Assembly (NCBI GenBank): GCA_963663995.1 | Contig: OY760660.1 | Coordinates: 1,890,001 to 1,922,000 of the forward strand | Direction of reading: 5' to 3' | DNA: 32,000 nucleotides | Origin: Erysipelotrichaceae bacterium | GTDB lineage: Bacteria; Bacillota_I; Bacilli_A; Erysipelotrichales; Erysipelotrichaceae | Shown here: positions 13,958-29,869 of the stretch, in pieces | Numbering within the stretch: the stretch's first letter is position 1 | How the letters are laid out: the number at the start of each line of letters is the position of its first letter | Program-made: the position numbers and the translations under genes | Notes under the pieces: generated by a model | The model's input: only the letters and a program-made list of their open reading frames with translations | Databases searched by the model: none | Told to the model about the DNA's origin: nothing

Positions 13958-16507
13958 TTAAGCTCTCAGTTCAATATCGAAGGACTGGGCACGAGTTGGC
14001 TCAATCATAACTTCACCTTGATTGATTAAATTAATAAAGATATCAGCGAGTTTTGGATCAAACTGTGCTCCAGCATTACGTCTAATTTCTTCTATCGCAT
14101 ATTCAACCGTATGATTGGTTTTATAATGACGATCAGATGTTATCGCATCAAAGGCATCAGCTAAACAAATACATCTTGCCCCAAATGGAATATTTTCTGC
14201 ACATAACTTTCTAGGATAACCGCGTCCATCATAGCGTTCATGATGCCCAATAACGGCTGGGATAACTTTACTAAAGGTTGGTAAGTATTTAATGATGGTG
14301 ACAGATAGATCAACATGTCGTTTCATAACTTCAAATTCTTCATTCGTTAAACGATCTGTCTTTGTTAAGATGTGCTCAGGAATACCAATTTTGCCGATAT
14401 CATGAAGCAAGGATGCTTGACGGATAATTTCAATTTCACTCTCACTAGCACCTGCTGCATGAGCAATTGCAGTCGCATATTTGGCAACCCTTTGTGAATG
14501 ACCAAATGTAATATGATCTTTCGCATCAATTGTTGCGGTTAATGCATAAATTGTCGCCCATTGATTTTCACTTAAATCAAATTCAGCGACGGGAGTTTCA
14601 GCTACTTCATTTGTATAAATGGTTGTTCGATTACGACCATTACGTTTTGAATAGATTAAAGCAGTATTTGCATTTTTTAATAAACTGACGGCTTCACTAC
14701 AGGCACTTGGATAGACACATAAGCCTACAGATACAGAAATATAGCGTTCAGTTTCATTGATGTTAGAGACAGATAAACCTTCAATTTGAGTACGTATCTT
14801 TTCAGCTAAATCATAACTTTGTTTAGTATCAGCACCATTCAGAAGGACACCAAAAATATCACCGGCATATCTAAAGACTAAGGTTGACTCATGAACACTA
14901 CGTTTAATTCGATCAGCGACTTTTGTTAGTACGATATCACCTGCAAGATGACCATAAATATCGTTATAAACAGTTAAGGAATCAATACCAAATAGAGTTA
15001 AAGATAAACTTAATGGTTTAGACTCAACTTGTTTGTTGAGAGCTTCCATGAAATATCGATGATTATAAGTTTGGGTCAATGAATCAGTAATAGCCTCAGT
15101 TTGCGTTCTTTCGAAAAGCAAAGCATTGGTGAGGGCCATTGCCGCAGTTGAACACATTAATTCAATAGATTCAATATGGTTAAAGGCTTCAATAGAACGA
15201 TGATCATTATGACATAAAAGCATGAATCCAATTAAATCATGGTGAACTTTAAGAGGGATCGCAACTTCGAATAATAATTCATTTAAAGAATTAAAATCTT
15301 CTTCCCACATGGATTTAAAGAGTGGATGTTGATAGAGGTCTTCGCCACGAATTGGCGTATCATCATTTTCAAACCACTTTGCAAAGGCGTGATTTAAACT
15401 AAATTGTAATCTCTTTCGCTCTAGTTTTTTAGATGATGCATAACATTCATATTTTTCCTGAACAGTATTTTTCAAGTAAAGATGAATCTTACCGTGTTCT
15501 AAAATGGATTGAGACACTCTAATCAATTCTTCACTAATTTCTTTAGCATTTAAATTATTCGCAACAGATTGAGTGAAATTATGGATTTCTGCTTCTCTTT
15601 TGATTTCATCTTTATAAAAGAATTTATTAATAAGTTTATGTAAAATCATAAAAATAGGTTGGAAAATTAGAATACCGATGACAATAGCTACAACTAACAT
15701 GATGGATTCATCAATACCTGTATTTAATGATTGAAAGAAAGCCCATGCGTTATTCAAAAGAACAGATGTGCCAATCGATAATAATACTAAAGCCACACTT
15801 AAAGTTAATGCTTTCGTAATTACAATCTTTAATTCAATAATACGATTTGCGTAAACAGCTTTCATCATTATAAGCACAGCAATCGACCCAGCAAAGAAGT
15901 CAAAAGGATATTTACCAATAACCGGAACTAGATTAATCCCCATCCCAACAAAGATAATAAATAATGAAATGACAATTTGTTTTAAACCTTTATTGATTGA
16001 AATGGATGATTTAATATGATTACGAGCGATGAGGAAGCACGCCATTAATTGAAGGAATATAATGCCATATGAAACATATGCTCCCCACGTTAATGTGTAG
16101 TTAAGTTGTGTATATGGAGCGACTGATAATGTAACCATTTCAGCTTCTGTCGTCACAAAACCTGTAAAAATTAGTCCGAGAATGAAAACATCTAAAAGCC
16201 CCCAAAGGATTAATGGTAACCAACGTTTTCTCTCGATATATACATTTAAGAAAATATAACTAGCATAGGGTAGAACAGCACTACCTAAAATCATCATATG
16301 ATTATAAAAGAGAGTACCAGGGTAAAAATTAAGTTTCATCAAAAGTGATGATGCTGTCCAAATAGCCATTGAGAAAACAACAAAAGTAAAAGATTTTATG
16401 GTGGCATCTTTCTTCGATAAAACCAGAATGCCTAATAAGCTTAAACTTAAAAGGAATGCAATTGAAGGGAGTCCCCAGTAAAATAGTGTTAAACCATAAT
16501 CACTCAT
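13958..16507 (-). CDS. membrane sensor protein: N-terminal polytopic (7TM-type) domain, GAF-like linker, degenerate GGDEF (AGDIF), HD-GYP c-di-GMP phosphodiesterase domain
   Basis: 849 aa. About 290 aa of TM helices. GGDEF-fold blocks (DSLTQTYNHRYF, GIDSLTVYNDIYGHLAGD), but the signature reads RYAGDIFG. HD-GYP signature is intact (HSQRVA, LLHDIGKIGIP, HHERYDGRGYP). ATGA overlap with the upstream GH3 gene. Confidence 0.9.
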   Translation of the reverse strand: MSDYGLTLFYWGLPSIAFLLSLSLLGILVLSKKDATIKSFTFVVFSMAIWTASSLLMKLNFYPGTLFYNHMMILGSAVLPYASYIFLNVYIERKRWLPLILWGLLDVFILGLIFTGFVTTEAEMVTLSVAPYTQLNYTLTWGAYVSYGIIFLQLMACFLIARNHIKSSISINKGLKQIVISLFIIFVGMGINLVPVIGKYPFDFFAGSIAVLIMMKAVYANRIIELKIVITKALTLSVALVLLSIGTSVLLNNAWAFFQSLNTGIDESIMLVVAIVIGILIFQPIFMILHKLINKFFYKDEIKREAEIHNFTQSVANNLNAKEISEELIRVSQSILEHGKIHLYLKNTVQEKYECYASSKKLERKRLQFSLNHAFAKWFENDDTPIRGEDLYQHPLFKSMWEEDFNSLNELLFEVAIPLKVHHDLIGFMLLCHNDHRSIEAFNHIESIELMCSTAAMALTNALLFERTQTEAITDSLTQTYNHRYFMEALNKQVESKPLSLSLTLFGIDSLTVYNDIYGHLAGDIVLTKVADRIKRSVHESTLVFRYAGDIFGVLLNGADTKQSYDLAEKIRTQIEGLSVSNINETERYISVSVGLCVYPSACSEAVSLLKNANTALIYSKRNGRNRTTIYTNEVAETPVAEFDLSENQWATIYALTATIDAKDHITFGHSQRVAKYATAIAHAAGASESEIEIIRQASLLHDIGKIGIPEHILTKTDRLTNEEFEVMKRHVDLSVTIIKYLPTFSKVIPAVIGHHERYDGRGYPRKLCAENIPFGARCICLADAFDAITSDRHYKTNHTVEYAIEEIRRNAGAQFDPKLADIFINLINQGEVMIEPTRAQSFDIELRA

Positions 16508-18135
16508 GAAACTTTCCTCCCAAAGGCACGTTTAAGTATTTCTACCACATCAAAGTGATTTGGATTTACGCGCGCAACTTTGTGATGAATCGTTTTTTGA
16601 TAGGCACTAATGGTCCCAAAAGGTAAAACAGTAATTGTTAAAGGATCAATTCCTAACATTTTCTTTAAATTTTTAAAATCTTGATCAACATAAGCAAAAT
16701 TTAATTCTAATTGAGCTTGAATTAAATCAACTCGATCCCATCCTAAATCATCTTGTTTGTGATTAAGCTCAATCGCTAGATTCAAATAAGGACGTTGTTG
16801 ATCATCGTAACACTTACGTGCAAACCAATTGGATATTGGTAAACGTGATAATTTAATAACTTCGGTAAGTGTTTCTTCAGTAATACGGGTAAAACCAGCT
16901 AAGTCTACGACTGGATCAACTCGATCAATATATCTTAGATGTGGCAAAGCAATGCCATCTTTTGTTCGTTCTAATACTTCACATTTAAAGACATCACCAA
17001 CACGATATCTGGCAAAAGCACCGCCTTTAAAAGTAGTGATAACTAACTCATAAGATTCATCTTCTTTTAGTTCATCCATTAAATATGTTTTTGGTTGATA
17101 ATTAGGATCTTCCAAATTTGCATAAAATTCATGCATCGGAATGAACTCATAGAAACAAATATGTGGTAGGAAGATTAGACCGTCTTTCTCCCATGATTCC
17201 ACACCAATGCATGTAGGTTCTGTACCACCAAACACCTCTAGTGGAACAACACCCCAGTAATCTGCAATTCTCTTTTTGAAATGCAGAGTATCTGTACCAA
17301 TACAAACAAAGCCTTTTAAATCAAATACATCTTTTGGGTAAATTGGTTGCTTAGAAAAATGACTCTTGATTTTTGCATGAGCAAATTTTGATATTTGAGA
17401 CAATTTAAAATCTAATAAATTTGCACTACCAGAAGTTCCTTCACTGAATTGTTCAGACATTCTAACAATGACAGAACTTAAACCATAGAATAAGTCTAAT
17501 CCTTGTTGAATCCCCATTTTAAAGCCTTCTTTATTTCTTTGTGAGAAGCTCATTTTTAAGCCTTCATCAATAGGTGGAAAATAGTTAACACTAAAATCAT
17601 CTCGAATGACATCAGGTAATAGTCCTGTTAAATATGGAAGAGGAGCCATACCATTAAGGAAATTCATTCCAGGTTTTAAATCAAAGTGCCCTTTACGACG
17701 TGAGGATGCTAACATAATGCACGTAAAAGCAGAATCACGGTAATTGCGAATCATTGCTTCGGTATATGGCGCAAGTTTGATTGGTGCTTTACCACCAACC
17801 CAAGTTGTTTCAATCCAAATGGCTGCTGGTGCAGGTAACATATTTTCTTGTTTACTCAAGAGAATATCAGCGTAATCTTCATAAGATGTTAATGGTACTT
17901 TTGTTCTAAATTCACTCATCGAATTTATTTGCTGACCATTAAATAATTTTTGTCCTAATTCACATTTATTAAAGAGTTGAATTTGTTCTAAAAGAAGTTG
18001 TTCTTGAATAGCCATAAACTCAGAAACTGATAAATCTAAAAAGCCACAATAACGATTCCATAGTTCTTTGTGGTTTTTACGTTTCAGATGTTCATCAAAA
18101 CTTAAGTGCGATGTACTTAAGATGGATTCTGACAT
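16504..18135 (-). CDS. GH3 family protein (acyl-acid amido synthetase-like adenylating enzyme)
   Basis: 543 aa. The N-terminal FRTKVPLTSYEDYADIL block and overall length/architecture are typical of bacterial GH3 'auxin-responsive promoter' family proteins. Confidence 0.75.
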   Translation of the reverse strand: MSESILSTSHLSFDEHLKRKNHKELWNRYCGFLDLSVSEFMAIQEQLLLEQIQLFNKCELGQKLFNGQQINSMSEFRTKVPLTSYEDYADILLSKQENMLPAPAAIWIETTWVGGKAPIKLAPYTEAMIRNYRDSAFTCIMLASSRRKGHFDLKPGMNFLNGMAPLPYLTGLLPDVIRDDFSVNYFPPIDEGLKMSFSQRNKEGFKMGIQQGLDLFYGLSSVIVRMSEQFSEGTSGSANLLDFKLSQISKFAHAKIKSHFSKQPIYPKDVFDLKGFVCIGTDTLHFKKRIADYWGVVPLEVFGGTEPTCIGVESWEKDGLIFLPHICFYEFIPMHEFYANLEDPNYQPKTYLMDELKEDESYELVITTFKGGAFARYRVGDVFKCEVLERTKDGIALPHLRYIDRVDPVVDLAGFTRITEETLTEVIKLSRLPISNWFARKCYDDQQRPYLNLAIELNHKQDDLGWDRVDLIQAQLELNFAYVDQDFKNLKKMLGIDPLTITVLPFGTISAYQKTIHHKVARVNPNHFDVVEILKRAFGRKVS

Positions 18136-18668
18136 GAACTTGTCTCCTTTAACTTTATAAATAGAAATGGTACTTTTTCTTGATAATCAAGATAACCAGG
18201 TATCGATTGCGGAAAAATTACTGTATCTTGTATCGCCACATGAATTAAATCAAAGATTGACCAAATAATTGCGGTTAATAAAATTAGGAAACTGCCAGAT
18301 GCTAAGGTAAAACCAAGCCCCATGAGAATAAATCCCCAAACGCCAGGATGACGACATAGTGAATATATACCATGATCAACTAATTTTACTTCATCTAACT
18401 TCGTGTATGTATCTGCATAAGGTAGGGCAAAAAACAAAGCATAAATTTGTTCAATTGCACCAATGACAACTAATGAATAGAAAAGATAATTGGAAGAAAA
18501 TGTACCATATAGATCTTTTTGAATGAAAATCATTGTCAATGAAACGATAAGTAGAATGATTGAAAAAGGGAATAAAGCATTCAAAATATGATGCCATTTA
18601 TAAATTTTATTCAAGTCAAAAAGAGTTAGTAAAATGAATGATGTACAACCAATTACGATCCAGTTCAT
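18117..18668 (-). CDS. ICMT/PEMT-like membrane methyltransferase family protein
   Basis: Polytopic. GIYSLCRHPGVWGFILMGLG resembles the RHPxY-type motif of isoprenylcysteine carboxyl / phospholipid methyltransferase-like proteins. ATG 18668 is preferred over TTG 18692 (GGGGAAGGG SD-like upstream). Confidence 0.6.
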   Translation of the reverse strand: MNWIVIGCTSFILLTLFDLNKIYKWHHILNALFPFSIILLIVSLTMIFIQKDLYGTFSSNYLFYSLVVIGAIEQIYALFFALPYADTYTKLDEVKLVDHGIYSLCRHPGVWGFILMGLGFTLASGSFLILLTAIIWSIFDLIHVAIQDTVIFPQSIPGYLDYQEKVPFLFIKLKETSSCQNPS

Positions 18669-18693
18669 AAAACCCTTCCCCTGGGTCAACAAA

Positions 18694-19980: not shown

Positions 19981-20373
19981 ATGGGAAGACCAAAAGGAAG
20001 CACAGGAAAAAAATTACATAAATGGACAGTTGAAGAAAAATTAGAGATCGTTAATAAACATTTAATAGATCACATGAGTTATGAGCAAATTAAGATTAAC
20101 TATCAAGTTGGTTTAGCACAAATACATAACTGGGTAAAACAATATCACGAGAACGGAGAAGAAGGACTTCTCCCAAAAGAAAATAAACGTAATATAATGG
20201 CTCATCTATATCGAAAGAAAAACCTAAACAAACTTGAGAAATTAGAACTTGAGAACTTCAAATTAAAACTAGAAGTTGAACGATTAAAAAAAGGTTACAC
20301 AGTGAAAGGAGTTGGTTCAAACAAGGAATACGTTCCTACATCCAAGACGAATATCAAATCATCAAAGAATTAA
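19981..20373 (+). CDS. IS3-family transposase OrfA (HTH + leucine-zipper region)
   Basis: 130 aa. N-terminal HTH (WTVEEKLEIV...GLAQIHNWVKQY) and a heptad-Leu region (LEKLELENFKLKLEVERLKK). The slippery run lies near the 3' part. Confidence 0.85.
   Translation: MGRPKGSTGKKLHKWTVEEKLEIVNKHLIDHMSYEQIKINYQVGLAQIHNWVKQYHENGEEGLLPKENKRNIMAHLYRKKNLNKLEKLELENFKLKLEVERLKKGYTVKGVGSNKEYVPTSKTNIKSSKN
20286..20293 (+). promoter_or_regulatory. programmed -1 ribosomal frameshift site (A AAA AAA G)
   Basis: The run of seven A then G is read in the orfA frame as TTA AAA AAA GGT. Frame -1 is open from here to 21227 and encodes the DDE domain. Confidence 0.7.
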
Positions 20374-21227
20374 GTAATGAGTATTCAGTTGGATTTTTAT
20401 GTGGAGTATTAGATGTCAGTCGTAGTGGTTATTATAAATGGTTAAAACGTTTAGACACACTCAATCGGCATGAACAGAATAGAGAAGATCTTATTAAACT
20501 TATCGAAGAGATACATACAGAACATCCATCATACGGTTATCACGATATAACGGCAGTCATCACTACGCGTACAGGTTGGAAATTATCTGCATTAACGGTA
20601 CATAAAGCCTGTAAAGCGATTGGCGTTAAATCAGAAACTAAGCATTACAAGTGGAAGAAACCAGGAGAAGAACACGTCACTTATAAGAACGTCGTTTCAG
20701 GAAACTGGGAGGTATCTCGACCCTTAGAAATCGTGACGAGCGATATGACTGTACTCACCCATAGAGGAAAACAATATGAGTGGACATTCATCGTTGATGT
20801 GTTCAATAACTCCATCATCGCATCATCACTTAGTTCAAGACGAAATGATAATTCTACCTATTACCATTGTCTTGATCAACTCATTCACATCATCAAAAAA
20901 GAAGAATATTCCGAACCCATCATTTTCCACAGTGACCAAGGTGCAGTTTATTCTTCAAAAGGCTTCCAAGAAGCTCACAAAAATTATAACATTATTCGAT
21001 CTATGTCGCGCGTAGGCACACCAACTGATAACGCAGTTATAGAATCACTTAATGGTTGGATCAAAGCTGAAATAAAATGTGATTATAATCTTAAAGAATG
21101 GGATTCACTTGAAACTTTCATTGATCAATACATAGAGTTCTTTAATAATGAAAGACCAGCTTACAAACTCCAATATAAAACCCCTAACCAATTCTTAATT
21201 GATCAAGGGTTCACTGTTTTTTATTAA
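20292..21227 (+). CDS. IS3-family transposase OrfB part (DDE integrase-like catalytic domain; expressed as OrfAB fusion)
   Basis: My manual translation of frame 3 is open from 20283 onward: ...RLHSERSWFKQGIRSYIQDEYQIIKELSNEYSVGFLCGVLDVSRSGYYKWLKR... It then continues into the tracked ORF. DDE triad candidates are TSDMT, HSDQG and ESLNGW. Confidence 0.85.
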   Translation, partial: RLHSERSWFKQGIRSYIQDEYQIIKELSNEYSVGFLCGVLDVSRSGYYKWLKRLDTLNRHEQNREDLIKLIEEIHTEHPSYGYHDITAVITTRTGWKLSALTVHKACKAIGVKSETKHYKWKKPGEEHVTYKNVVSGNWEVSRPLEIVTSDMTVLTHRGKQYEWTFIVDVFNNSIIASSLSSRRNDNSTYYHCLDQLIHIIKKEEYSEPIIFHSDQGAVYSSKGFQEAHKNYNIIRSMSRVGTPTDNAVIESLNGWIKAEIKCDYNLKEWDSLETFIDQYIEFFNNERPAYKLQYKTPNQFLIDQGFTVFY

Positions 21228-21272: not shown

Positions 21273-22316
21273 TTATTTGAATAATTCAGGATCGAAGGCG
21301 TGACGGACAGCTTCTTCTTTACTAATAATATTTGATTCAAGTAATTTCCTTAAACTTTCGTCCATCGTGATCATGCCATCATCTTTGGAAACTCGGATGG
21401 TCGCATTTAATTGATGTGTTTTACCTTCACGTATTTGATTACGTATGGCGGTGTTGTTGACCATTACTTCAAAGGCAGGGTGAATTTGTTGATCAAGAGT
21501 TGGGACGAGTTGTTGTGATATAACAGTTTGAAGAACCATTGCTAGTTGGATTCGAACTTGGTGTTGTTGTTCAGATGGGAAGACATCAACGATTCGATCA
21601 ATGGTATTACTTGCCCCTAATGTATGAAGAGTTGAGAAAACTAAGTGGCCAGTTTCTGCGGCCGTTAGGGCTAAAGAAATTGTTTCTAAATCACGCATTT
21701 CTCCAACAAATAATACGTCTGGAGATTGTCTTAATGCAGATCTTAAAGCGATGGCTGTGCTTTCACAGTCTGTTCCAATTTCTCTTTGTGTGACAACTGA
21801 TTGATTATGTTTAAATAAGAATTCAATCGGATCATCAATCGTAATAATATGACCTTTTCTTGATTTATTGATTTCAGTTAGAAGCATAGCCATTGTTGTC
21901 GATTTACCACAACCTGCTGGACCACTAACAATCACTAAACCTTTGCTTAATTTCGCAAAACGCATAACATTTTCAGGTACATGCATAATACTAGGCTCAG
22001 GAATATCGAAACGCACAATTCTTAGAACAGCTGCTAAACTCGAACGTTGTGTATAAACATTCGCTCTAAATCTTGCGACATGAGGTATAGAGAATGAAAA
22101 GTCATCATCTCCATTTGTATTCACTTTATCCATAGAACGATTAGCTACTTGATAAATTGTCTTAATCAATTCATAGGTATCATCTGGCATTAAGCGAGCA
22201 CCATCTAATTGTTTGAGCTCGTTTTTTATTTTTAAAGCTAAACTAGTACCAGCAACAATAAAAAGATCGGATGCTCCCAGCAACATAGCTTTTTCAATTA
22301 GTTCATTTAAATTCAT
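21273..22316 (-). CDS. pilT: PilT-family type IV filament ATPase (retraction-class hexameric ATPase)
   Basis: 347 aa, collinear with PilT. GASDLFIVAG, Walker A GPAGCGKST, DDPIEF, GEMRDLETISLALTAAETGHLVFSTLHT and a PilT-type AIRNQIRE motif. It lacks the long N-terminal domains of PilB/GspE. Confidence 0.9.
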   Translation of the reverse strand: MNLNELIEKAMLLGASDLFIVAGTSLALKIKNELKQLDGARLMPDDTYELIKTIYQVANRSMDKVNTNGDDDFSFSIPHVARFRANVYTQRSSLAAVLRIVRFDIPEPSIMHVPENVMRFAKLSKGLVIVSGPAGCGKSTTMAMLLTEINKSRKGHIITIDDPIEFLFKHNQSVVTQREIGTDCESTAIALRSALRQSPDVLFVGEMRDLETISLALTAAETGHLVFSTLHTLGASNTIDRIVDVFPSEQQHQVRIQLAMVLQTVISQQLVPTLDQQIHPAFEVMVNNTAIRNQIREGKTHQLNATIRVSKDDGMITMDESLRKLLESNIISKEEAVRHAFDPELFK

Positions 22317-22759
22317 TATTGACCTCCATATACAGGATCACCATTGAGTGAATAATCTTGAGTATTTATAATACTTAAACGTTTTGATTCCAAAATTAAA
22401 TTTTTATTTTCATGATTAATATCTAATATTACTTTTACCATTTGTGTTTCACTGACAGTCTCGATTGTGATTACATCTTCTTCTTTATCGTAATTCACCA
22501 TCTCTAAATTGTCTATCTTCATTAAGAATTCTTCAAAACTTGACTGTGATTGATAGATTTTATTAACTTCAGCGATTTGCAGATCAGTCTCTTTTTCAAT
22601 CATATATGAATCAGCTACAAAATCCATACTTTTCAAAATGCTGTTATGTGTTTGTCTAACATCGACAAGTAAGACAGATACAACGGAATAAACTAAGATT
22701 AAAATTAGAATAGAGAGTAAGGTTGGTAATCCAAAAGGATTAAATCCACGTTTCTTCAT
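22316..22759 (-). CDS. small bitopic protein, ComGG/minor-pseudopilin-like N-terminus (KKRGFNPFG...)
   Basis: Start set at ATG 22759 (ATGA overlap with the upstream stop). MKKRGFNPFGLPTLLSILILILVY has a basic-Gly-Phe junction followed by a hydrophobic helix but no Glu at +5. The stop overlaps the pilT start (TAATG). Confidence 0.5.
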   Translation of the reverse strand: MKKRGFNPFGLPTLLSILILILVYSVVSVLLVDVRQTHNSILKSMDFVADSYMIEKETDLQIAEVNKIYQSQSSFEEFLMKIDNLEMVNYDKEEDVITIETVSETQMVKVILDINHENKNLILESKRLSIINTQDYSLNGDPVYGGQ

Positions 22760-23118
22760 CGTGACACCCCCACATCCCATGATGTGATCACTTGACCCTC
22801 ATCATCTTTTAGGCTAATACTAATCCAATTGAAATCATTGGTATTTTCTTTATTAAGATAAATGGTATAGATAGGATTTTGATTTGTTCTATTACCACTA
22901 ACATCAAACATAATCGGAACTAATGAACTTTCAGTATTAAGTGTCTCTGATATATTCATCATCTCTGCTTGAATTTTAGATAAAGCCAAATTTTCCTGAT
23001 GTGTTTTATTAGCCAGTAAAAGAAGATAAAATGCAAGGAACAAACCAAAACTTAAAAAGATAACATTCAATATAATCTCTAACATAAAGTTCTTTTGAGG
23101 TTTATTCATATGATTCAC
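22756..23118 (-). CDS. small bitopic protein (120 aa) with an atypical N-terminal ...KNFMLEIILNVIF... helix
   Basis: One N-terminal TM helix, with FMLE reminiscent of but not matching G/FTLxE. Translationally coupled on both sides. The start could be ATG 23109. Confidence 0.5.
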   Translation of the reverse strand: MNHMNKPQKNFMLEIILNVIFLSFGLFLAFYLLLLANKTHQENLALSKIQAEMMNISETLNTESSLVPIMFDVSGNRTNQNPIYTIYLNKENTNDFNWISISLKDDEGQVITSWDVGVSR

Positions 23119-23542
23119 CAGCTTGTACTCGATAATTCAATGTGATGACTTCATTTGCTTCATTAATGTAAGTTATTGTTACTAATTGATTGTCTATTTC
23201 AACTTTAAAATCTTGAACAAAAGCGAGCTCTTCACCATTTCCATAGCGAACAGGATCAATCGAAACTTGTTCCATCAATGATTGATTTTCTTCATAGACT
23301 AAAAGGTAGTAACCATTTAGATCAAAAATTAAGGTTGAATCTTTAACTGACAGTGAGTCTAAAATATCATTTTGTTTGAATCGATTATTAAAATATAATC
23401 GAATACTTCGATCATTTAACTCAATGTCACTTTGAGCTTGAATTTCTTGTGTTAAAGAAGCACCAAAACTAATCAGTAAAGTCGAGGCAAGAACAAGAAC
23501 TAAAATCATCAAAAGGGATAAGGCTGTACTATTTTTTTTCAT
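23102..23542 (-). CDS. small bitopic protein (146 aa), possible minor pseudopilin/assembly factor
   Basis: N-terminal MKKNSTALSLLMILVLVLASTLL helix and a beta-rich C-terminal part. Its size matches ComGD-class proteins, but there is no canonical prepilin motif. It shares a 1-nt overlap (TAATG) with the upstream gene. Confidence 0.5.
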   Translation of the reverse strand: MKKNSTALSLLMILVLVLASTLLISFGASLTQEIQAQSDIELNDRSIRLYFNNRFKQNDILDSLSVKDSTLIFDLNGYYLLVYEENQSLMEQVSIDPVRYGNGEELAFVQDFKVEIDNQLVTITYINEANEVITLNYRVQAGESYE

Positions 23543-23832
23543 TAGTTTTCCCCTCCCAAACGATAGATGTGGATAGTAGGTCTAAGGTTAGAAGCAAAAA
23601 CTTTATAGGTCACAACAAACTTATCATCGACAACTACACCATAATAATTGATTAAATATTCAAGTTGAGCAGGGTAAAAACCTTCTTGTGCATAACAAAG
23701 CGTTAGCGCATTTTGTATCGCTTTTTCTAAACTTTGTTGATTAAGGGCAACTTGATCATTTTCCATTCTACTGATTAGCAGAAAGCTAAGAAGACAAGCA
23801 GCGATAAAAGTTGTTACTGAAGCTTTTTTCAT
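23542..23832 (-). CDS. small pilin-like protein (96 aa) lacking the canonical prepilin cleavage motif
   Basis: An N-terminal hydrophobic helix continues into an amphipathic helix, followed by ...YAQEGFYPAQLEYLINYYGV..., which resembles the alpha-beta loop region of ComGC/major pilins (EGxxPxxLxxLxxxGY). There is no G-F-T-L-x-E. Confidence 0.45.
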   Translation of the reverse strand: MKKASVTTFIAACLLSFLLISRMENDQVALNQQSLEKAIQNALTLCYAQEGFYPAQLEYLINYYGVVVDDKFVVTYKVFASNLRPTIHIYRLGGEN

Positions 23833-23835
23833 TTT

Positions 23836-24858
23836 TTATCCTAAGGTAGACATCACATTTAATAAGGGTAAAATCATTGAGAACACAATCGCAAAAACCA
23901 TTGCAGTCAAACTAGTGATTAACCAAGGTTCAATTCTATTTAAGCTAGAGTTTAATTGATTTTGTGCTCTTTGATTAAGTAAATAAGATAAATCATCAAG
24001 AGCATTTTCAAGTTGTCCAGCTTTTGCGGCAATGTTTAACGTACTTAAATCTATTGATTCATAAAGGGTATTGTTTAACAAGAGTTCATATAAACCTTCA
24101 GAAGGATCAAGTTTAGCTTTAGCTTTGTTGAGTTTTTCTTCAAATTTAACACTTGTATCATTCGCTTTGACCATACTAAGTGCACTTCGATTATCAATAC
24201 CGCCAGATAAAGCTATATACGCCATTGATGTATAATAAGCAACTTGTGAAGTTTCATATGCTTTTGGGAATAATCTTAATAATCGAGTATCCCAAGAAGG
24301 TTGACTTTCTGGTTTTTTTTGATGTTTGATTTCTCCTAGGATAAACCAAAGAGCGATTAAAGCATAGCTAGTCATTAAAGCTATACTAAAGCCTTTTAAA
24401 GCATATAAGAAAGCACGTAAGCTTGCACTTTGAGCGATACCAAGTTGAGTAAAGAGATTTTGAAATATTGGTAGAATGGTGAAAGACATTAAAGTTAAAA
24501 TTATCCCAAAGATCGCTAATAAAATTAATGGCAGGCTCAAGATTTCTTTTAAGAACTGTTGAAGTTCAGATTGACGAGTAAAATGTTTCGCCATTTGTTT
24601 AAAGAGTTTTTCTTCCTGTCCTACTTTTTCAGCAATTACTAATGCATCAATGAAATAGTGTGGGAAAGCAGCATCTTGTTTGAAAACATAACTAAGACTT
24701 GGATTTTCACTAAAATGTGTTTGCCAAGATTTATAGTCATAGATTTCACTTTTTTCAAGTAAACTTAAGCCTTTATCTAGACTAGTACCTGAAGCATACA
24801 AATAACTAAGTTGTTGACATAAAGAGGCAAGTTCTTGTGCAGTATATTGTTTTCTCAT
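23836..24858 (-). CDS. GspF/PilC/ComGB-family type IV filament platform protein
   Basis: 340 aa with two T2SSF-like repeats (cytoplasmic helical bundle then TM). N-terminus ELASLCQQLSYLYASGTSLDKGLSLL; C-terminal TM ILPLLNVMSTLG. The size is ComGB-like. Confidence 0.8.
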   Translation of the reverse strand: MRKQYTAQELASLCQQLSYLYASGTSLDKGLSLLEKSEIYDYKSWQTHFSENPSLSYVFKQDAAFPHYFIDALVIAEKVGQEEKLFKQMAKHFTRQSELQQFLKEILSLPLILLAIFGIILTLMSFTILPIFQNLFTQLGIAQSASLRAFLYALKGFSIALMTSYALIALWFILGEIKHQKKPESQPSWDTRLLRLFPKAYETSQVAYYTSMAYIALSGGIDNRSALSMVKANDTSVKFEEKLNKAKAKLDPSEGLYELLLNNTLYESIDLSTLNIAAKAGQLENALDDLSYLLNQRAQNQLNSSLNRIEPWLITSLTAMVFAIVFSMILPLLNVMSTLG

Positions 24859-24866
24859 AAATCTCC

Positions 24867-25805
24867 TTAATAACGATCTTGGTCTTGATATGACCCATCA
24901 TATTCGCCCATTGAATCAAAAGTTGGATCAACTCTTTTCCATTCATCACTTGCAAAATAAATACTTGGATTTATCCATCCTTGATCATCTAAATAAACTT
25001 CAACCCATGCATGATAACCAACATCCGTCATACCCGTGATAATTCGAGTTGGTATATGTTGTGCTCTAAGCATAGCCGTCATTAATGCAGCATAATCAAA
25101 ACAAATTCCTTTTTGTTGGATATATGTTTCGTCAATGATAGGAAGAATGAATGTTGACTTGGCTACTTCAGCTTTATCGTAATCATAAGTTATATTTTCA
25201 GTGATATAAGTGTATATTTCATAGACTCTTAATAAATCACTATTAGCGTCCTGCGTTAAATTGAATGATTCTAATACAGCTTTTGTATTCGCATCATAGT
25301 CAACCATTTGATTGGGATAAATGTAAGGACTATTTTCATCTTCTAAGTTAACAGTGATATTGGTAGAGGCAAGAATGCTGTAACTTGTACCTTCAATGTT
25401 TTTAAGCGCTCGAATGGTATAGTCGCCATTGCCCAAATGCATAGGAACAATCACATATTCATTCGCATGAAGATCATAAGTATAAGTTTGGTCATTTAGA
25501 ATAACTTGAACTTTTTGTTTGGAAGTACTATCACTCGTTTTGATACTAACATATCCAAAATTCGCATTTGAATAATCAATGCTTATCCCGTTGTTTTCAA
25601 AAAGGGAAGTTCCAGGTTGAGTAGGTAAAAGTAAGTCAGAAAGTTTATACGCTTCAGAGGGTGTTCCCTCTTCTGGATAAGCGCTTGTACTTGCTTGACT
25701 TGGACTTGTTCTTTCTTGAATTGTAGCAGGCTTATCACTACTGCATGCACTTAAGAAAATAACAATGCAGAATAGAATAAGTATATGGCTTATGGGTTTA
25801 TTCAT
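24867..25805 (-). CDS. transglutaminase-like (Cys-His-Asp core) lipoprotein
   Basis: Lipobox FLSAC. The C-terminal core GICFDYAALMTAMLRAQHIPTRIITG...GYHAWVEVYLDDQGWINP...VDPT matches the transglutaminase-core/cysteine-protease fold. Confidence 0.85.
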   Translation of the reverse strand: MNKPISHILILFCIVIFLSACSSDKPATIQERTSPSQASTSAYPEEGTPSEAYKLSDLLLPTQPGTSLFENNGISIDYSNANFGYVSIKTSDSTSKQKVQVILNDQTYTYDLHANEYVIVPMHLGNGDYTIRALKNIEGTSYSILASTNITVNLEDENSPYIYPNQMVDYDANTKAVLESFNLTQDANSDLLRVYEIYTYITENITYDYDKAEVAKSTFILPIIDETYIQQKGICFDYAALMTAMLRAQHIPTRIITGMTDVGYHAWVEVYLDDQGWINPSIYFASDEWKRVDPTFDSMGEYDGSYQDQDRY

Positions 25806-25828: not shown

Positions 25829-25837
25829 ATTATAGCA
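25829..25837 (-). promoter_or_regulatory. extended -10 promoter element TGCTATAAT upstream of the transglutaminase/filament genes
   Basis: The minus strand reads a perfect TGnTATAAT about 24 nt upstream of ATG 25805, directly downstream of the adhesin terminator. Confidence 0.45.
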
Positions 25838-25840
25838 CTG

Positions 25841-25867
25841 AAAAAAAAGAGCCTAAGCGGCTCTTTT
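25841..25867 (-). terminator. rho-independent terminator after the adhesin gene
   Basis: Minus strand reads AAAGAGCC-GCTTA-GGCTCTTT followed by a T run, starting a few nt after TAA 25874-25876. Confidence 0.8.
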
Positions 25868-25873
25868 AACACA

Positions 25874-28800
25874 TTATAGTTCAATAATTGTATTGTATTC
25901 TTCGTCTTGTTCAGCAGGGATTAGAACAGTGTGAACTAAATGACCATGAAGCACGAAGTTAACGGTTAGATTACCTAAGTGTTTTGCGAGACGTTTGTAG
26001 ATTGTTACATCAATTTTGGCAAGATCTACTAAGTTTTTATCATTAAGATCAACAATGAATACAGTTTGATCATCATCAGGTTTTGATAGACGACGTCGTA
26101 ATGTTTTTTCTGTTCCATCCTTAGTGATTAATGTGTATCTAATATTAGGTCTAATAAAGGCTAGAAGAAGTGGAAGTAATCCAAGTAACCAGTATAACCA
26201 ACTAAAGTCCATTGGTAATGCGGCTAGAGGCGTTTCCTCTGGTTCTTCAACCAAGATAACACCTTGTGTCACATCAATCACAACTGAAGCAGTATTTGAA
26301 TCAAGTTCACCATCATTGGCGATGAAGCTAAAGCTATCATTACCAACGAAGCCATCGTTAGGCGTATAAGTAAATGAACCATCATCATTGAAGACTAATG
26401 TACCATTCGAGACGGATGATACTAAAGCAAATGTTAAGGCATCTCCATCAGCATCACTTGCACTTGCTTGACCACTAATAGCTGTTTCAAATTCAGTTGA
26501 GTATGTTCCTGCATTAGCAACTGGAGCTGTATTCAAGGCAGCTAGAGGAGTAGGTGTAGGAACGACTGTAACTGTAACTGGAGGTGTAGTAGGAGGAGTG
26601 GTTGGAGGTGTAACTGGAGGAGCAGGAGGAGCAGTAACAGTAATCGTAACTGTAACTACATTAGAATCATCTTCACCATCATTGGCATGATAAGTAAAGG
26701 TATCTGTTCCAACAAATCCAGCAGTAGGTGTATAAGTAAATGAACCATCAGCGCCTAATACTAAGGCACCATTGACAACATTAACATTTAGAACAGCTGT
26801 TAATGAATCACCTTCAACATCAGTATCATTAGCTAAGACACCAGCAGCAGCGATACTTAAGCTTGCAGTATTAACGACTGTATAAGCTTCAGCAACGGCT
26901 ACAGGGGCATCATTCACTGGAGTTACTGTAATATAAATTGTAGCAACTTCAGAAGTATCAACACCATCACTTACGGTGTAAGTGAATTGATCGTCCCCAA
27001 CGTAATTAGCGTTAGGTGTATAAGTAATTGCTGATCCTGTTCCACTTAGAACACCATTGGTAGGAGCAGTTGTGAGGAATGTTAATTCATCTTCATCAAC
27101 GTCTTCACCAAAGAGGGTAATAAGAAGTGCTGTATCTTCAGGAGTTGTTAACTCTTGACCTTCAGCTACAGGAACATCATTGATAGGATTAACAGTGATT
27201 TCTACAGTTGCGCTAGCACTAATGTTTCCATCAGTAATGCTGTAATCGAAACTATCTAAACCATTGAAATTAGCAGCAGGTGTATAAGTGAAAGAACCAT
27301 CAATATTCATGGATACACTACCACCATTAACACTTGTTGCATCATATGCACTAATTTCTAATGCATCACCATCAACGTCTGAATCATTGTCTATGACTCC
27401 ATTAACAGCCAATACAACCAGAGGCGTATCTTCATCAGTTGAATATTCATCATCAACAGCAACAGGAGCATCATTAATGTTTGTTACATTAATGGTAATC
27501 GTAGCTGCTACTGAACTTAGAACACCATCAAATGTTGTAAAGGTGAATGAATCTTGACCGACAAAATCAGTGTTTGGAGTATAAGTAATTTGATCATCAT
27601 TTAGAATGCTTAAAGTACCATTTGTAGGTTGAGAAGCGATAGCGAATGTAATGCTATCCCCATCAATATCTGAACCAGTTAAGGTAATGAGTAAAGCTGT
27701 TTCTTCAGCTGTATCTACAGTTTGATCATTAGCAGTAGGAGCATCATTTATTGGGTTAACAGCGATTTCAACAATTGCTATATCCGTTAAACTACCATCA
27801 CTAACTGTGTATGTGAATGTATCACTATCTAATCCCACTCCATTAAAGTTTGCAGCAGGTGTATATGTAAATGTACCATCTAAAGCCATCGATACAGTAC
27901 CACCGTTGGTTGTTGTAGTGTCATAAGCACTTACAAATAAACTATCACTATTAGCATCAGTGTCATTGGCTAGAACACTATTAGCAATAAGTACTGTTAA
28001 TGGAGTATCTTCATCAGTAGTATATTCATCATCAACTGCAACTGGAGCAGTATTATTAACTGAAATATAAACAGTAGCTATGTTGGAGTTACTTGTTCCA
28101 TCATAAGCCATATATGTGAAATGGTCTGTACCATTGAAACCTGAATTTGAAGTATAAGTGAATGATCCATCAGCATTTAATGATAATGTACCATTTGAAA
28201 CATTATCAACTAATATAGCAGATAGAGAACTACCTTCAACATCAGTATCATTTCCTAAAATACCAGGAGCTGCTATTGATAGTTCAACAAGTTGAGCAGC
28301 AGTATAATTATCATCTGTGGCAACAGGAGCATCATTGACTGCATTAATAGTAATATTGACAGTCGCTGTATCACTTCCACCATTTCCATCACTGATTGTA
28401 TAAGTATAAGAATCAGTACCATTAAAATCAGAAGCAGGTGTAAAAGTAATTGTATTATCAGCATTAATTACTACTGTACCGTTTGATCCTTGTGTTACTG
28501 AAGAGATTGTTAAAACATCACCATCAATATCAGAATCATTAGCTAATACATTAGTTGTAACTGCAGTATCTTCATCAGTAAAATCTGAATCATCTACAGC
28601 AACAGGAGCATCGTTAATCGGTGTAACTGTAATGTTTACAGTACCAGTAACTGATGTTGTACCATCGCTTAATGTGTATGTAAATGAATCATTCCCATTA
28701 AAATCATCAAAAGGTTCATAACTAAATGATCCGTCAGATCCTAAATAAGTTAGGTCACCATGACTTGGATTAGTACCAGCACTTATTGTTAAAGGATCAC

Positions 28801-29869
28801 CATTTGGATCACTGTCATTAATTAATAAATGATTTACATCAGAATTTGTAACTTTTAATAATCCATCTTCGTCTACGGTATAAGTATCTGTGCCAGCCAC
28901 AGGACTGTTGTTTGTAACAAGAATAGTAACAGTTGCTTCATTAGAATCAGCAGTACCATCATTTGCTATATATTTGAAAGTAACAGTTCCGTCAAATCCC
29001 ACTGAAGGAGTATAATCAAAAGAACCATTACTATTAAGTATTAATGTTCCATTTGCGGGATCACTTACTTTTGTCGATGTAAGTACTGTTCCTAAATCAA
29101 CATCACTATCATTTCCTAAAACACCACTTGCAACAATTGATAATGTTGTGTTTTTAACCAATGTGTAAGAATCATCAACAGCTACTGGTACATCATTTAC
29201 AGGTGTTACTGTAATTGTGACAGTAGCAGTATTTGAATCGACATGTCCATCATTTGCTGTGTATGTAAAACTATCTGTTCCATTATAATTTGCGTTTGGT
29301 GTATATGTGAATGAACCATCAGCATTTAATGACAAACTACCATTAGTGGTATTGCTAACAAGAACCGCTGTTAAAGGGTCAACATCTCCACTTACATCAT
29401 TAGCTAGAACACCTGGCATAGAAATTGTTAATGGAGTATCTTCAAGTGTTGCATACGTATCAGGATTAGCTATCGGAACTGTATTTATACGATAAACTGC
29501 TGAAATACCAACGAATTTCACATTAGTATTTGCAGGTTGTTCATATATTACAACCTCGACAAAGAATCCCAAAAATACATAACCTGAATATTCAAGTGCT
29601 GTAACTTCTGGGAAATTATCTCGAACGAAATTATCGGCATTTGATCCAACAGTTAGACCAGAACTTGTCCATAAAGTATCTAGTTCATTTAAATAATGAT
29701 ATTCATAATTGCCATTTCCTTGACCATTATTTATTGAGTCATCAATACTAATATGAATTTCTAATGTTGGAGAATTTTGAGAAGCTAATATTGGTGTTAT
29801 GTTCCAGGAACTAAACGTAAGTGTGAAAACCATTAAGATTTTCGAAATTCTAGTAATTGTTTTTATCAT
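25874..29869 (-). CDS. giant surface protein: signal peptide, ~100-aa N-domain, 11 cadherin/Ig-like (VCBS / Big_9-type) repeats, P/T-rich linker, C-terminal TM helix and 92-aa cytoplasmic tail
   Basis: 1331 aa. The repeats follow the pattern NDAPVAVDDxYTTDEDTPL...VLANDTDVDGD.LT...NGT...NADGSFTYTP...F.GTDSFTYT..DG...SN.ATV.ITV.P. SD AGGAGGA lies 7 nt upstream. Confidence 0.85.
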   Translation of the reverse strand: MIKTITRISKILMVFTLTFSSWNITPILASQNSPTLEIHISIDDSINNGQGNGNYEYHYLNELDTLWTSSGLTVGSNADNFVRDNFPEVTALEYSGYVFLGFFVEVVIYEQPANTNVKFVGISAVYRINTVPIANPDTYATLEDTPLTISMPGVLANDVSGDVDPLTAVLVSNTTNGSLSLNADGSFTYTPNANYNGTDSFTYTANDGHVDSNTATVTITVTPVNDVPVAVDDSYTLVKNTTLSIVASGVLGNDSDVDLGTVLTSTKVSDPANGTLILNSNGSFDYTPSVGFDGTVTFKYIANDGTADSNEATVTILVTNNSPVAGTDTYTVDEDGLLKVTNSDVNHLLINDSDPNGDPLTISAGTNPSHGDLTYLGSDGSFSYEPFDDFNGNDSFTYTLSDGTTSVTGTVNITVTPINDAPVAVDDSDFTDEDTAVTTNVLANDSDIDGDVLTISSVTQGSNGTVVINADNTITFTPASDFNGTDSYTYTISDGNGGSDTATVNITINAVNDAPVATDDNYTAAQLVELSIAAPGILGNDTDVEGSSLSAILVDNVSNGTLSLNADGSFTYTSNSGFNGTDHFTYMAYDGTSNSNIATVYISVNNTAPVAVDDEYTTDEDTPLTVLIANSVLANDTDANSDSLFVSAYDTTTTNGGTVSMALDGTFTYTPAANFNGVGLDSDTFTYTVSDGSLTDIAIVEIAVNPINDAPTANDQTVDTAEETALLITLTGSDIDGDSITFAIASQPTNGTLSILNDDQITYTPNTDFVGQDSFTFTTFDGVLSSVAATITINVTNINDAPVAVDDEYSTDEDTPLVVLAVNGVIDNDSDVDGDALEISAYDATSVNGGSVSMNIDGSFTYTPAANFNGLDSFDYSITDGNISASATVEITVNPINDVPVAEGQELTTPEDTALLITLFGEDVDEDELTFLTTAPTNGVLSGTGSAITYTPNANYVGDDQFTYTVSDGVDTSEVATIYITVTPVNDAPVAVAEAYTVVNTASLSIAAAGVLANDTDVEGDSLTAVLNVNVVNGALVLGADGSFTYTPTAGFVGTDTFTYHANDGEDDSNVVTVTITVTAPPAPPVTPPTTPPTTPPVTVTVVPTPTPLAALNTAPVANAGTYSTEFETAISGQASASDADGDALTFALVSSVSNGTLVFNDDGSFTYTPNDGFVGNDSFSFIANDGELDSNTASVVIDVTQGVILVEEPEETPLAALPMDFSWLYWLLGLLPLLLAFIRPNIRYTLITKDGTEKTLRRRLSKPDDDQTVFIVDLNDKNLVDLAKIDVTIYKRLAKHLGNLTVNFVLHGHLVHTVLIPAEQDEEYNTIIEL
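26270..29485 (-). repeat. in-frame tandem array of ~95-100-codon divergent repeats (11 units; a P/T linker precedes the last)
   Basis: I counted repeat-initiating (N)D/T-(A/V/S)P(V/I/T)A motifs at 11 positions. The DNA copies are diverged rather than identical. Confidence 0.8.

Follow-up and report, generated by a model that had tools for sequence, protein, structure and literature searches.

A 32,000-nucleotide (nt) stretch of DNA from an Erysipelotrichaceae bacterium (GCA_963663995.1, contig OY760660.1, positions 1,890,001-1,922,000) is referred to below as the window, and all coordinates are positions within it. Seven densely packed open reading frames (ORFs) were found in the ORF listing on its minus strand, running from 25805 to 21273. 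They encode a transglutaminase-fold lipoprotein, a platform protein, four small proteins and an ATPase of the PilT family. The sequences of the ATPase and the platform place the block clearly in the type IV filament superfamily. With moderate confidence, and guided by sequence comparisons and predicted structures, we propose that the block is a self-contained member of a conserved, undescribed subclass of type IV filaments (pseudopili) that occurs in Clostridia and Erysipelotrichia. A more far-reaching proposal is offered tentatively, as a possibility that we rate somewhat below even: that these loci form a new class, in which a PilT-family ATPase is the sole motor for assembly and retraction, the subunits do without processing by a prepilin peptidase, and the transglutaminase-fold enzyme forms an integral part of the machine outside the cell.

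The classification of type IV filament machines is based on extension ATPase, peptidase and pilins, and PilT is the textbook motor for retraction only. The operon described here is conserved in hundreds of lineages of Clostridia and Erysipelotrichia, many of which are abundant gut commensals. If it is self-contained, it would be a natural system for asking whether a PilT-type motor can run a filament both ways and whether prepilin processing is dispensable. A role would also be gained for Pfam family DUF4860 and for three unnamed protein families, and gut anaerobes, in which adhesion and secretion are little understood, would gain a surface machine. Some carriers are cultivable (Thomasclavelia, Hungatella hathewayi and Faecalicatena contorta), which makes the proposal accessible to experiment. 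In the papers searched, no mention of DUF4860 and no operon combining PilT, a platform and a transglutaminase in these taxa were found, and the surveys of type IV filaments consulted list no such class.

The seven genes are given below in module order. The four small proteins are denoted s1-s4 in gene order, the platform is denoted F, and related loci carry numbers such as L001.

24867..25805, minus strand: transglutaminase-fold lipoprotein, 312 amino acids (aa), the first module gene (Transglut_core E 3.2e-22; lipobox LSAC).
23836..24858, minus strand: platform of the GspF/PilC/ComGB family, 340 aa (T2SSF E 2.7e-17).
23542..23832, minus strand: s1, a bitopic protein of 96 aa, pilin-shaped in its AlphaFold2 model.
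23102..23542, minus strand: s2, DUF4860 family, 146 aa, with a GspJ/XcpW-like predicted fold.
22756..23118, minus strand: s3, pilin-like, 117-120 aa (likely start ATG at 23109).
22316..22759, minus strand: s4, pilin-like, 147 aa.
21273..22316, minus strand: PilT-family hexameric ATPase, 347 aa, the only ATPase of the module (TIGR01420).

The original prediction, which was made from the sequence of the window, had described seven packed or translationally coupled genes of these sizes, beginning with a transglutaminase-like lipoprotein and a GspF-like platform; the coordinates, ORFs and profile matches agree with this description. It had also given the gaps and overlaps between the genes as 8, 3, 1, 17, 4 and 1 nt. 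These values follow from the coordinates listed, but the overlap of 17 nt is likely to be 8 nt, since the s3 orthologues begin at the ATG at 23109, which gives a protein of 117 aa. For s4 the longest ORF encodes 154 aa, but the orthologues begin at MKK, which gives 147 aa and a start at 22759. All seven genes are under purifying selection, with ratios of nonsynonymous to synonymous substitution rates (dN/dS) of 0.06-0.26 between the window and L001, a comparison in which dS is saturated.

The ATPase was found to match T2SSE (E 7e-42) and to pass the family model for PilT/PilU, TIGR01420, with 395.1 bits against a cutoff of 319.1 over residues 3-343 of 347. No other family model was passed: the scores were 131.6 bits for the ComGA model NF041000 (cutoff 300), 119 bits for GspE (cutoff 630) and 43.9 bits for the TadA family (cutoff 373), and the score for PilB was far under its cutoff. 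The protein aligns end to end with the solved PilT of A. aeolicus (E 3e-95) and with that of P. aeruginosa; with PilB and GspE structures only the core is aligned, at no more than 95 bits. The Walker A motif (GPAGCGKST) and the AIRNQIRE motif are intact. The original assignment of the last gene to the PilT class, and not to the ComGA/PilB class, was therefore correct. The platform scored 63.4 bits against the T2SSF cutoff of 25.2, in two stretches, and it matches PilC of M. xanthus with E 5e-8. Against the NCBIfam models it remained below every cutoff, with 92 bits for ComGB (cutoff 240), 83 for GspF, 78 for HofC and 73 for PilC; as judged by these sequence scores, the platform is roughly equidistant from the four families.

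The small proteins were originally reported to lack a canonical prepilin motif, and this was confirmed by the failure of s1-s4 to match N_methyl or any pilin family at threshold in Pfam and NCBIfam. Profiles of s1-s4 gave no significant match to the sequences in the PDB, and a search with the concatenated s1-s4 alignment returned no homologues. In the window copies, s1 and s2 have neither the Gly at position -1 (Gly-1) nor the Glu at position 5 (Glu5) of the pilin signature, s3 has the Glu with Lys at -1, and s4 has a Gly without the Glu. When 102 s3 and s4 proteins were compared with NCBIfam, the sub-threshold matches were mostly to pilin families (PilV 6, ComGE 5, ComGG 5, GspI 3 and GspH 2); s3 matched PilV, ComGE and GspI, and s4 matched ComGG. 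The original prediction would have been refuted by folds unrelated to pilins; what was found were pilin-like predicted folds or pilin-like N-termini, so it is not refuted on this count. On the strength of these models and sequence features, all four are predicted to be pilin-like proteins with degenerate class III signals.

s1 consists of a basic leader and a membrane helix followed by a head of about 45 residues, and 0 of 150 representatives have a Gly or Glu signature. The AlphaFold2 model, built from a 150-sequence alignment, has a mean predicted local distance difference test (pLDDT) score of 95.6 and contains helix 2-50, helix 57-64 and two strands. The predicted shape is that of a pilin "lollipop", with an N-terminal helix of 49 residues and a tiny head. 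The conserved head motif is CYAxEGxYP...YG...N..P, in which the single Cys is near-invariant and the Asn and Pro are invariant. The s1 family comprises 784 clusters at 50% identity (E <= 1e-3) and is matched by no Pfam or NCBIfam model. We regard s1 as a candidate for the main subunit. The conservation of the head is unusually strong for a pilin-like head domain.

All eight aligned s2 copies, including that of the window, match Pfam DUF4860 at E <= 0.1, the best at 2.7e-25. The window copy by itself scores 15.5 bits against a cutoff of 25, and its membership of DUF4860 is by orthology. The AlphaFold2 model of s2 (pLDDT 92.6) contains a 56-residue helix (residues 2-57) packed on eight strands. 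The best Foldseek matches in the PDB were XcpW/GspJ structures (5bw0_C, E 0.025, probability 1.00; 3nje_A, template modeling (TM) score 0.48; 6utu_B) and EpsJ (2ret_B). The model thus predicts a fold like that of the minor pseudopilin GspJ/XcpW.

The N-terminus of s3 in the window is MNKPQKN-FMLEI, and the family pattern is a basic leader followed by xx[LF][LFM]xE[LIM]. The Glu was found in 56 of 66 family members; among these 56, position -1 (five residues before the Glu) is Gly in 5 and Ser in 12. When compared with the E. coli pseudopilins by hhalign, the s3 profile was in register with residues 2-44 of GspJ (probability 80%) and with GspH (63%); s3 alone scored, and s1, s2 and s4 gave no informative score. 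The s3 N-terminus also aligned with the signal peptide and alpha1N of MshA in a sub-significant profile search against PDB sequences. The corresponding segment of s4 in the window is MKKRGFNPFG-LPTLL. In 47 of 49 members a Gly adjoins the start of the hydrophobic helix, and an acidic residue at that place occurs in 0 of 49. No column of the s4 alignment other than this Gly is invariant. The s4 proteins of the window, L001, L002, L006, L007 and L010, which are Erysipelotrichaceae-type loci, share the C-terminal motif N.QDY(T/S)Q.G.PVYGG. The presence of these terminal Gln residues beside the gene of a transglutaminase-fold enzyme prompted the idea of cross-linking.

The product of the first gene is a transglutaminase-fold enzyme by its Pfam matches, which include DUF553 (E 3.4e-10) in addition to Transglut_core. 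The Cys-His-Asp triad is intact in the window enzyme (GICFDYA, HAWVEVY and VDPT) and is present in 39 of 45 module homologues. The nearest solved relatives by sequence are 3isr, a "putative cysteine protease", and TgpA (6g49). A release protease of the LapG type was considered and rejected, as only Transglut_core and DUF553 were matched and the NCBIfam model of LapG was not. A precedent is the recurrent link of transglutaminase-family surface peptidases with type IV pilus loci that has been described in archaea (PMC4858521).

The same seven-gene block was found around PilT homologues of 54-65% identity (L006-L010), in every locus examined. The PilT-derived loci include Thomasclavelia/Erysipelatoclostridium and a metagenome-assembled genome (MAG) of Lacrimispora (Lachnospiraceae), and each lies in a different chromosomal neighborhood. 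A metagenome scan with the s1 motif CYAxEG[RFS]YP then gave at least 581 relatives, and 80 of these loci were analyzed after annotation with hidden Markov models built from the first eight loci. The survey of synteny, which had been suggested along with the original prediction, gave the order platform-s1-s2-s3-s4 in 79 of 79 related loci of the metagenome set. This constancy marks the genes as a module far beyond chance. Adjacency of the two remaining genes was scored over those loci in which it was testable (38 for PilT and 45 for the transglutaminase-fold gene): PilT directly follows s4 in 33 of 38, and the transglutaminase-fold gene lies directly 5' of the platform gene in 34 of 45. In L047, L080 and L089 the latter gene is found 3' of pilT rather than upstream.

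By source names, the hosts are Thomasclavelia, Coprobacillaceae, Lacrimispora, Faecalicatena, Hungatella, Muricomes, Fournierella and Ventrisoma. On the sequence evidence, the module has a wide distribution across Clostridia and Erysipelotrichia and is not peculiar to one genome. An earlier view of it as rare and lineage-specific was abandoned: the platform search had returned 7 proteins, with five close relatives, and the genome scan one locus from an Erysipelotrichaceae MAG, but the PilT- and s1-based searches revealed the wide distribution. The apparent rarity arose because the platform and genome searches used exact-word and peptide-pattern prefilters. Family members are labeled "DUF4860 domain-containing protein" in public records of the relatives, or "hypothetical", apart from one misannotation: the s4 orthologue of the Lacrimispora MAG (L009, 9502-9990, P0298) is named "short-chain dehydrogenase" in NCBI and UniRef, apparently in error.

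Several components of type IV filament machines were sought by scanning the six-frame ORFs of 90 related loci and the window with E. coli Gsp proteins, with a reach of about 8 kb around the module. The A24 prepilin peptidase GspO matched nothing in this set, and GspL and GspM had no match in it either. The GxGD motif of prepilin peptidases was absent from L011-L090. With the GspE query a single ATPase, always the PilT, was detected in each of 50 loci of the set made up of the 90 related loci and the window, and no second ATPase. These scans do not bear out the possibility, raised with the original prediction as one that would refute it, that PilB, PilD and pilin genes lie adjacent to the block in relatives. 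A Pfam survey of 146 flanking ORFs, in which 25 families with at least two member matches each are listed, showed no recurrent partner; the commonest were ECF sigma factors (6), GGDEF proteins (4), S26 signal peptidases (3) and sortases (3). Among the 25 families listed there was no Peptidase_A24, no second T2SSE ATPase, no PilMNO and no competence gene family. In the window itself, no type IV pilus gene was seen besides the module, and the ORFs bear out the original statement that no prepilin peptidase, PilM/N/O or secretin gene is present there. ComGC was matched by no window protein, and in relatives by isolated sub-threshold proteins only.

The block was compared with the described classes of type IV filament machines, and by sequence it fails membership in Com, type IVa, type II secretion and Tad, as had originally been proposed. 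The Com pilus of Bacilli (ComGA-GG and ComC) is similar in being encoded by a compact operon in a single-membrane bacterium without PilMNO or secretin, and in having a platform followed by small pilin-like proteins whose sizes are close to those of the Com proteins. ComGB is also the best sub-threshold model for the platform, and weak ComGE and ComGG matches occur in the module. However, the module ATPase is of the PilT family and comes last, whereas ComGA comes first, and the module has no GFTLxE signal or linked ComC, four pilin genes instead of five, and an additional transglutaminase-fold enzyme. Com was found in 1 of 336 Clostridia genomes (PMC7212644), whereas the module is common in Clostridia.

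The pseudopilus of type II secretion (GspG with GspH-I-J-K, and GspE/F/O) resembles the module in that the s2 model is closest to GspJ/XcpW/EpsJ and the s3 N-terminus aligns with GspJ and GspH; GspK, like s4, lacks the Glu. A short, piston-like pseudopilus is moreover a plausible mode of action for the module. A GspE-type ATPase, GspC/L/M, a secretin and a peptidase are all missing from the module loci, however, there is no outer membrane, and s4 is much smaller, with 147 aa compared with 327 aa for GspK. Among type IVa pili, the likeness is to PilT/PilU, through the family model, the full-length alignment to solved PilT and an AIRNLIRE-like motif. Of the type IVa set, PilT was present at the loci, and PilB, PilD and, among the flank families listed, PilM/N/O were not. 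Classical PilT is encoded alone or as a pilTU pair, shares its platform with PilB and is dispensable for assembly (PMC6916266), whereas the module PilT is joined by translational coupling to a platform and a pilin set of its own, and PilB is absent from its vicinity.

Tad (type IVc) pili, in which one bifunctional ATPase, CpaF, drives both directions (PMC6668835), are alike in the idea that one motor could serve extension and retraction, and in their very small machinery. They differ in having an ATPase of another family, the platforms TadB and TadC, Flp pilins and the peptidase TadV; the module has one platform gene and none of these. The archaeal type IV pilus loci with transglutaminase-family surface peptidases (Makarova et al. 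2016) share the recurrent linkage of enzyme and pilus genes, but they have archaeal ATPases, platforms and peptidases, and PilT is absent from archaea (PMC4858521). The sporulation operon SpoIIIA was also considered, and rejected on gene content. In SpoIIIA a T2SSE-like ATPase is encoded first, and the membrane proteins differ from those of the module.

From the sequences and predicted structures we infer the following mode of action for the proposed filament subclass. s2, s3 and s4 would assemble into a tip or initiation complex of the kind made by GspI-J-K or ComGD-GG, and s1 would form the body of a short pseudopilus crossing the cell wall. The PilT-family hexamer would turn the platform and so perform both extension and retraction, by analogy with CpaF acting alone in Tad pili. 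Since Gly-1 is missing from the majority of family members and the loci contain no linked A24 peptidase, the subunits are probably not classically processed; they may stay anchored in the membrane, so that the machine would act as a piston and not as a long fiber. The transglutaminase-fold enzyme may open or remodel the peptidoglycan around the machine, or it may trim or cross-link the subunits.

A number of observations weigh against this proposal. PilT-family ATPases are known for driving retraction, and none is known to assemble a filament unaided. The platform-s1-s4 core is kept without an adjacent PilT in five loci (L055, L056, L071, L073 and L083). The scans covered the loci only, so a PilB/ComGA ATPase or a prepilin peptidase may act in trans. 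Classical cleavage is possible for the s3 proteins that have Gly-1 (L009, L048, L056 and L081) and for s4, in which the Gly is nearly universal. The structural match of s2 is weak in E-value (0.025), and a Foldseek search of the PDB with the s1 model gave nothing significant, with full-length pilins among the best TM-scores. What has been suggested above for the transglutaminase-fold enzyme is guesswork, and the machine as a whole is described here from genes and predicted structures. The five loci without an adjacent PilT belong to one lineage, with the s3 N-terminus MKHSRSSLFLMEM or similar.

The module was originally noted to lie directly behind a riboswitch-controlled adhesin, and this arrangement was verified by the detection of tandem cyclic di-GMP (c-di-GMP) aptamers. 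The features of this region are as follows.

25874..29869, minus strand: adhesin, 1331 aa, which has a signal peptide, Big_9, cadherin-like and tandem-95 repeats and, at the C-terminus, a membrane helix and a conserved tail (about 92 aa).
30173-30091 and 29996-29914, minus strand: tandem c-di-GMP-I aptamers in the adhesin leader (62.0 and 61.6 bits, gathering score 35).
30292-30265, minus strand: adhesin promoter upstream of the aptamers, near-consensus TTGACT-16-TATAAT.
25841..25867, minus strand: intrinsic terminator of the adhesin gene, with a 9-bp stem, GCUUA loop and U-run (-13.2 kcal/mol, z -3.6).
25829..25837, minus strand: putative module promoter with the extended -10 element TGCTATAAT, read from the sequence; the ribosome-binding site is AAAGG (25815-25811) and the start codon is the ATG at 25805.

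In the window, L001, L002/L003, L006, L011 and L012 the module is preceded by an adhesin that shares this C-terminal membrane helix and tail; L007-L010 and the majority of the 80 metagenome loci have no adhesin neighbor. By sequence, the link is confined to one Erysipelotrichaceae clade. The terminator hairpin recurs in L001, L002, L006, L011 and L012, where the changes in its stem are compensatory, and TGnTATAAT is conserved at the equivalent position in all six adhesin-linked loci. The conserved terminator and the module's own extended -10 promoter indicate that the module is a separate transcription unit, which c-di-GMP could reach only through read-through. In this clade the proposed machine would thus be a fixed neighbor of the riboswitch-controlled adhesin, with a promoter of its own.

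The tandem aptamers are 94 nt apart and both complete, and the stretch from them to the start of the adhesin gene showed no expression platform resembling a terminator; the adhesin of L002 has a single upstream aptamer. The C-terminus of the window adhesin (25874-26230, minus strand), like that of the adhesins of L001, L002, L006, L011 and L012, contains a conserved PLAALPxDxSW motif, the membrane helix and the tail RPNIKYTL...RRRLxKPD...YKRLAKH..., which is probably cytoplasmic. Conservation of the tail extends to adhesins with different extracellular repeats. The tail has no Pfam match, and the adhesin has no LPXTG sorting signal. A role for the tail as a c-di-GMP receptor was rejected: no PilZ motif (RxxxR or DxSxxG) was seen by eye, and no Pfam family was assigned. 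GGDEF proteins are encoded repeatedly beside other module loci (4 of 146 flanking ORFs).

Other explanations of the block must be weighed against a self-contained filament machine. The block could be an accessory or retraction submodule that supplies PilT, an alternative platform and minor pilins to a canonical Com or type IV pilus, whose PilB or ComGA, peptidase and major pilin are encoded elsewhere. We consider this unlikely, but it would account for several observations: the ATPase is a textbook PilT, the peptidase is not linked, some s3 and nearly all s4 retain the Gly, five loci have no adjacent PilT, and Com systems are reported in 6 of 14 Erysipelotrichia (PMC7212644). Against this reading, the block has a platform of its own and four pilin-like genes whose order does not vary, and it is translationally coupled to PilT. 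Most s3 proteins lack Gly-1 and s1 lacks any class III feature, which also does not fit. The figure of 1 in 336 Clostridia for Com, set against the frequency of the module there, argues against the accessory role as a general explanation. It is also conceivable, if improbable, that no filament is made at all, and that the pilin-like proteins belong to a static membrane complex that also contains the platform, PilT and the transglutaminase-fold enzyme; it could, for instance, be a wall-remodeling or signaling complex descended from a type IV filament machine. The absence of Gly-1 in most lineages, the missing peptidase linkage, the plain basic leader and membrane helix of s1, and the position of an extracytoplasmic papain-like enzyme as usually the first gene of the module are consistent with such a complex. 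However, the pilin Glu of s3 and the pilin architecture (a long alpha1 and a beta-sheet) are under purifying selection, and a complete PilT motor with intact motifs has been retained as well.

We attach little weight to the idea that the block serves natural transformation as a DNA-capturing pilus, the clostridial equivalent of Com. The comG-like layout of a platform followed by four small proteins, ComGB as the best NCBIfam match of the platform, sub-threshold matches to ComGE, ComGG, ComGF and ComGC, and the fact that PilT-powered retraction drives DNA uptake in diderms (PMC7212644) all speak for it. All of the Com family models nevertheless scored below their cutoffs, neither ComGA nor ComC was found at the loci, no competence family is among the 25 flank families listed, and the papers searched contain no reports of competence in these taxa. 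Least credible, in our estimation very improbable, is a dedicated function in handling the neighboring c-di-GMP-controlled adhesin, by its secretion through the wall, its anchoring, or its release by the transglutaminase-fold enzyme acting as a protease. The original prediction had offered an undescribed surface filament or an adhesin-handling machine as alternatives; the filament-like module is supported, but the adhesin-handling part is weak. In its favor are the adjacency and the conserved membrane helix and tail of the adhesin in the six linked loci, together with a loose analogy to LapA/LapG and to C. perfringens, in which the secretion of matrix proteins depends on type IV pili. In the LapA/LapG/LapD system, too, a large repeat adhesin under c-di-GMP control adjoins a transglutaminase-like cysteine enzyme. 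The module enzyme is, however, a Transglut_core protein and not a member of the LapG family, control is by riboswitch and not by LapD, a terminator and a separate promoter divide the adhesin and the module into separate transcription units, and the adhesin is absent beside most module loci.

Some further features of the window and of related loci were recorded. Two plus-strand ORFs lie directly downstream of pilT, at 19981-20373 (130 aa) and 20733-21227 (164 aa); by appearance they resemble fragments of an IS3-family transposase (helix-turn-helix and integrase core, respectively). An unrelated ORF of 110 aa occupies this position in L001, and in L007 a helix-turn-helix ORF (HTH_28, weak) and an integrase-core ORF (rve) lie directly upstream of the module. 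A few kilobases from the module, the minus strand of the window at 13958-18692 encodes, by synteny with L001, a HisKA_7TM-GGDEF-HD protein of 849 aa, a GH3-family protein of 543 aa and a PEMT-like membrane protein.

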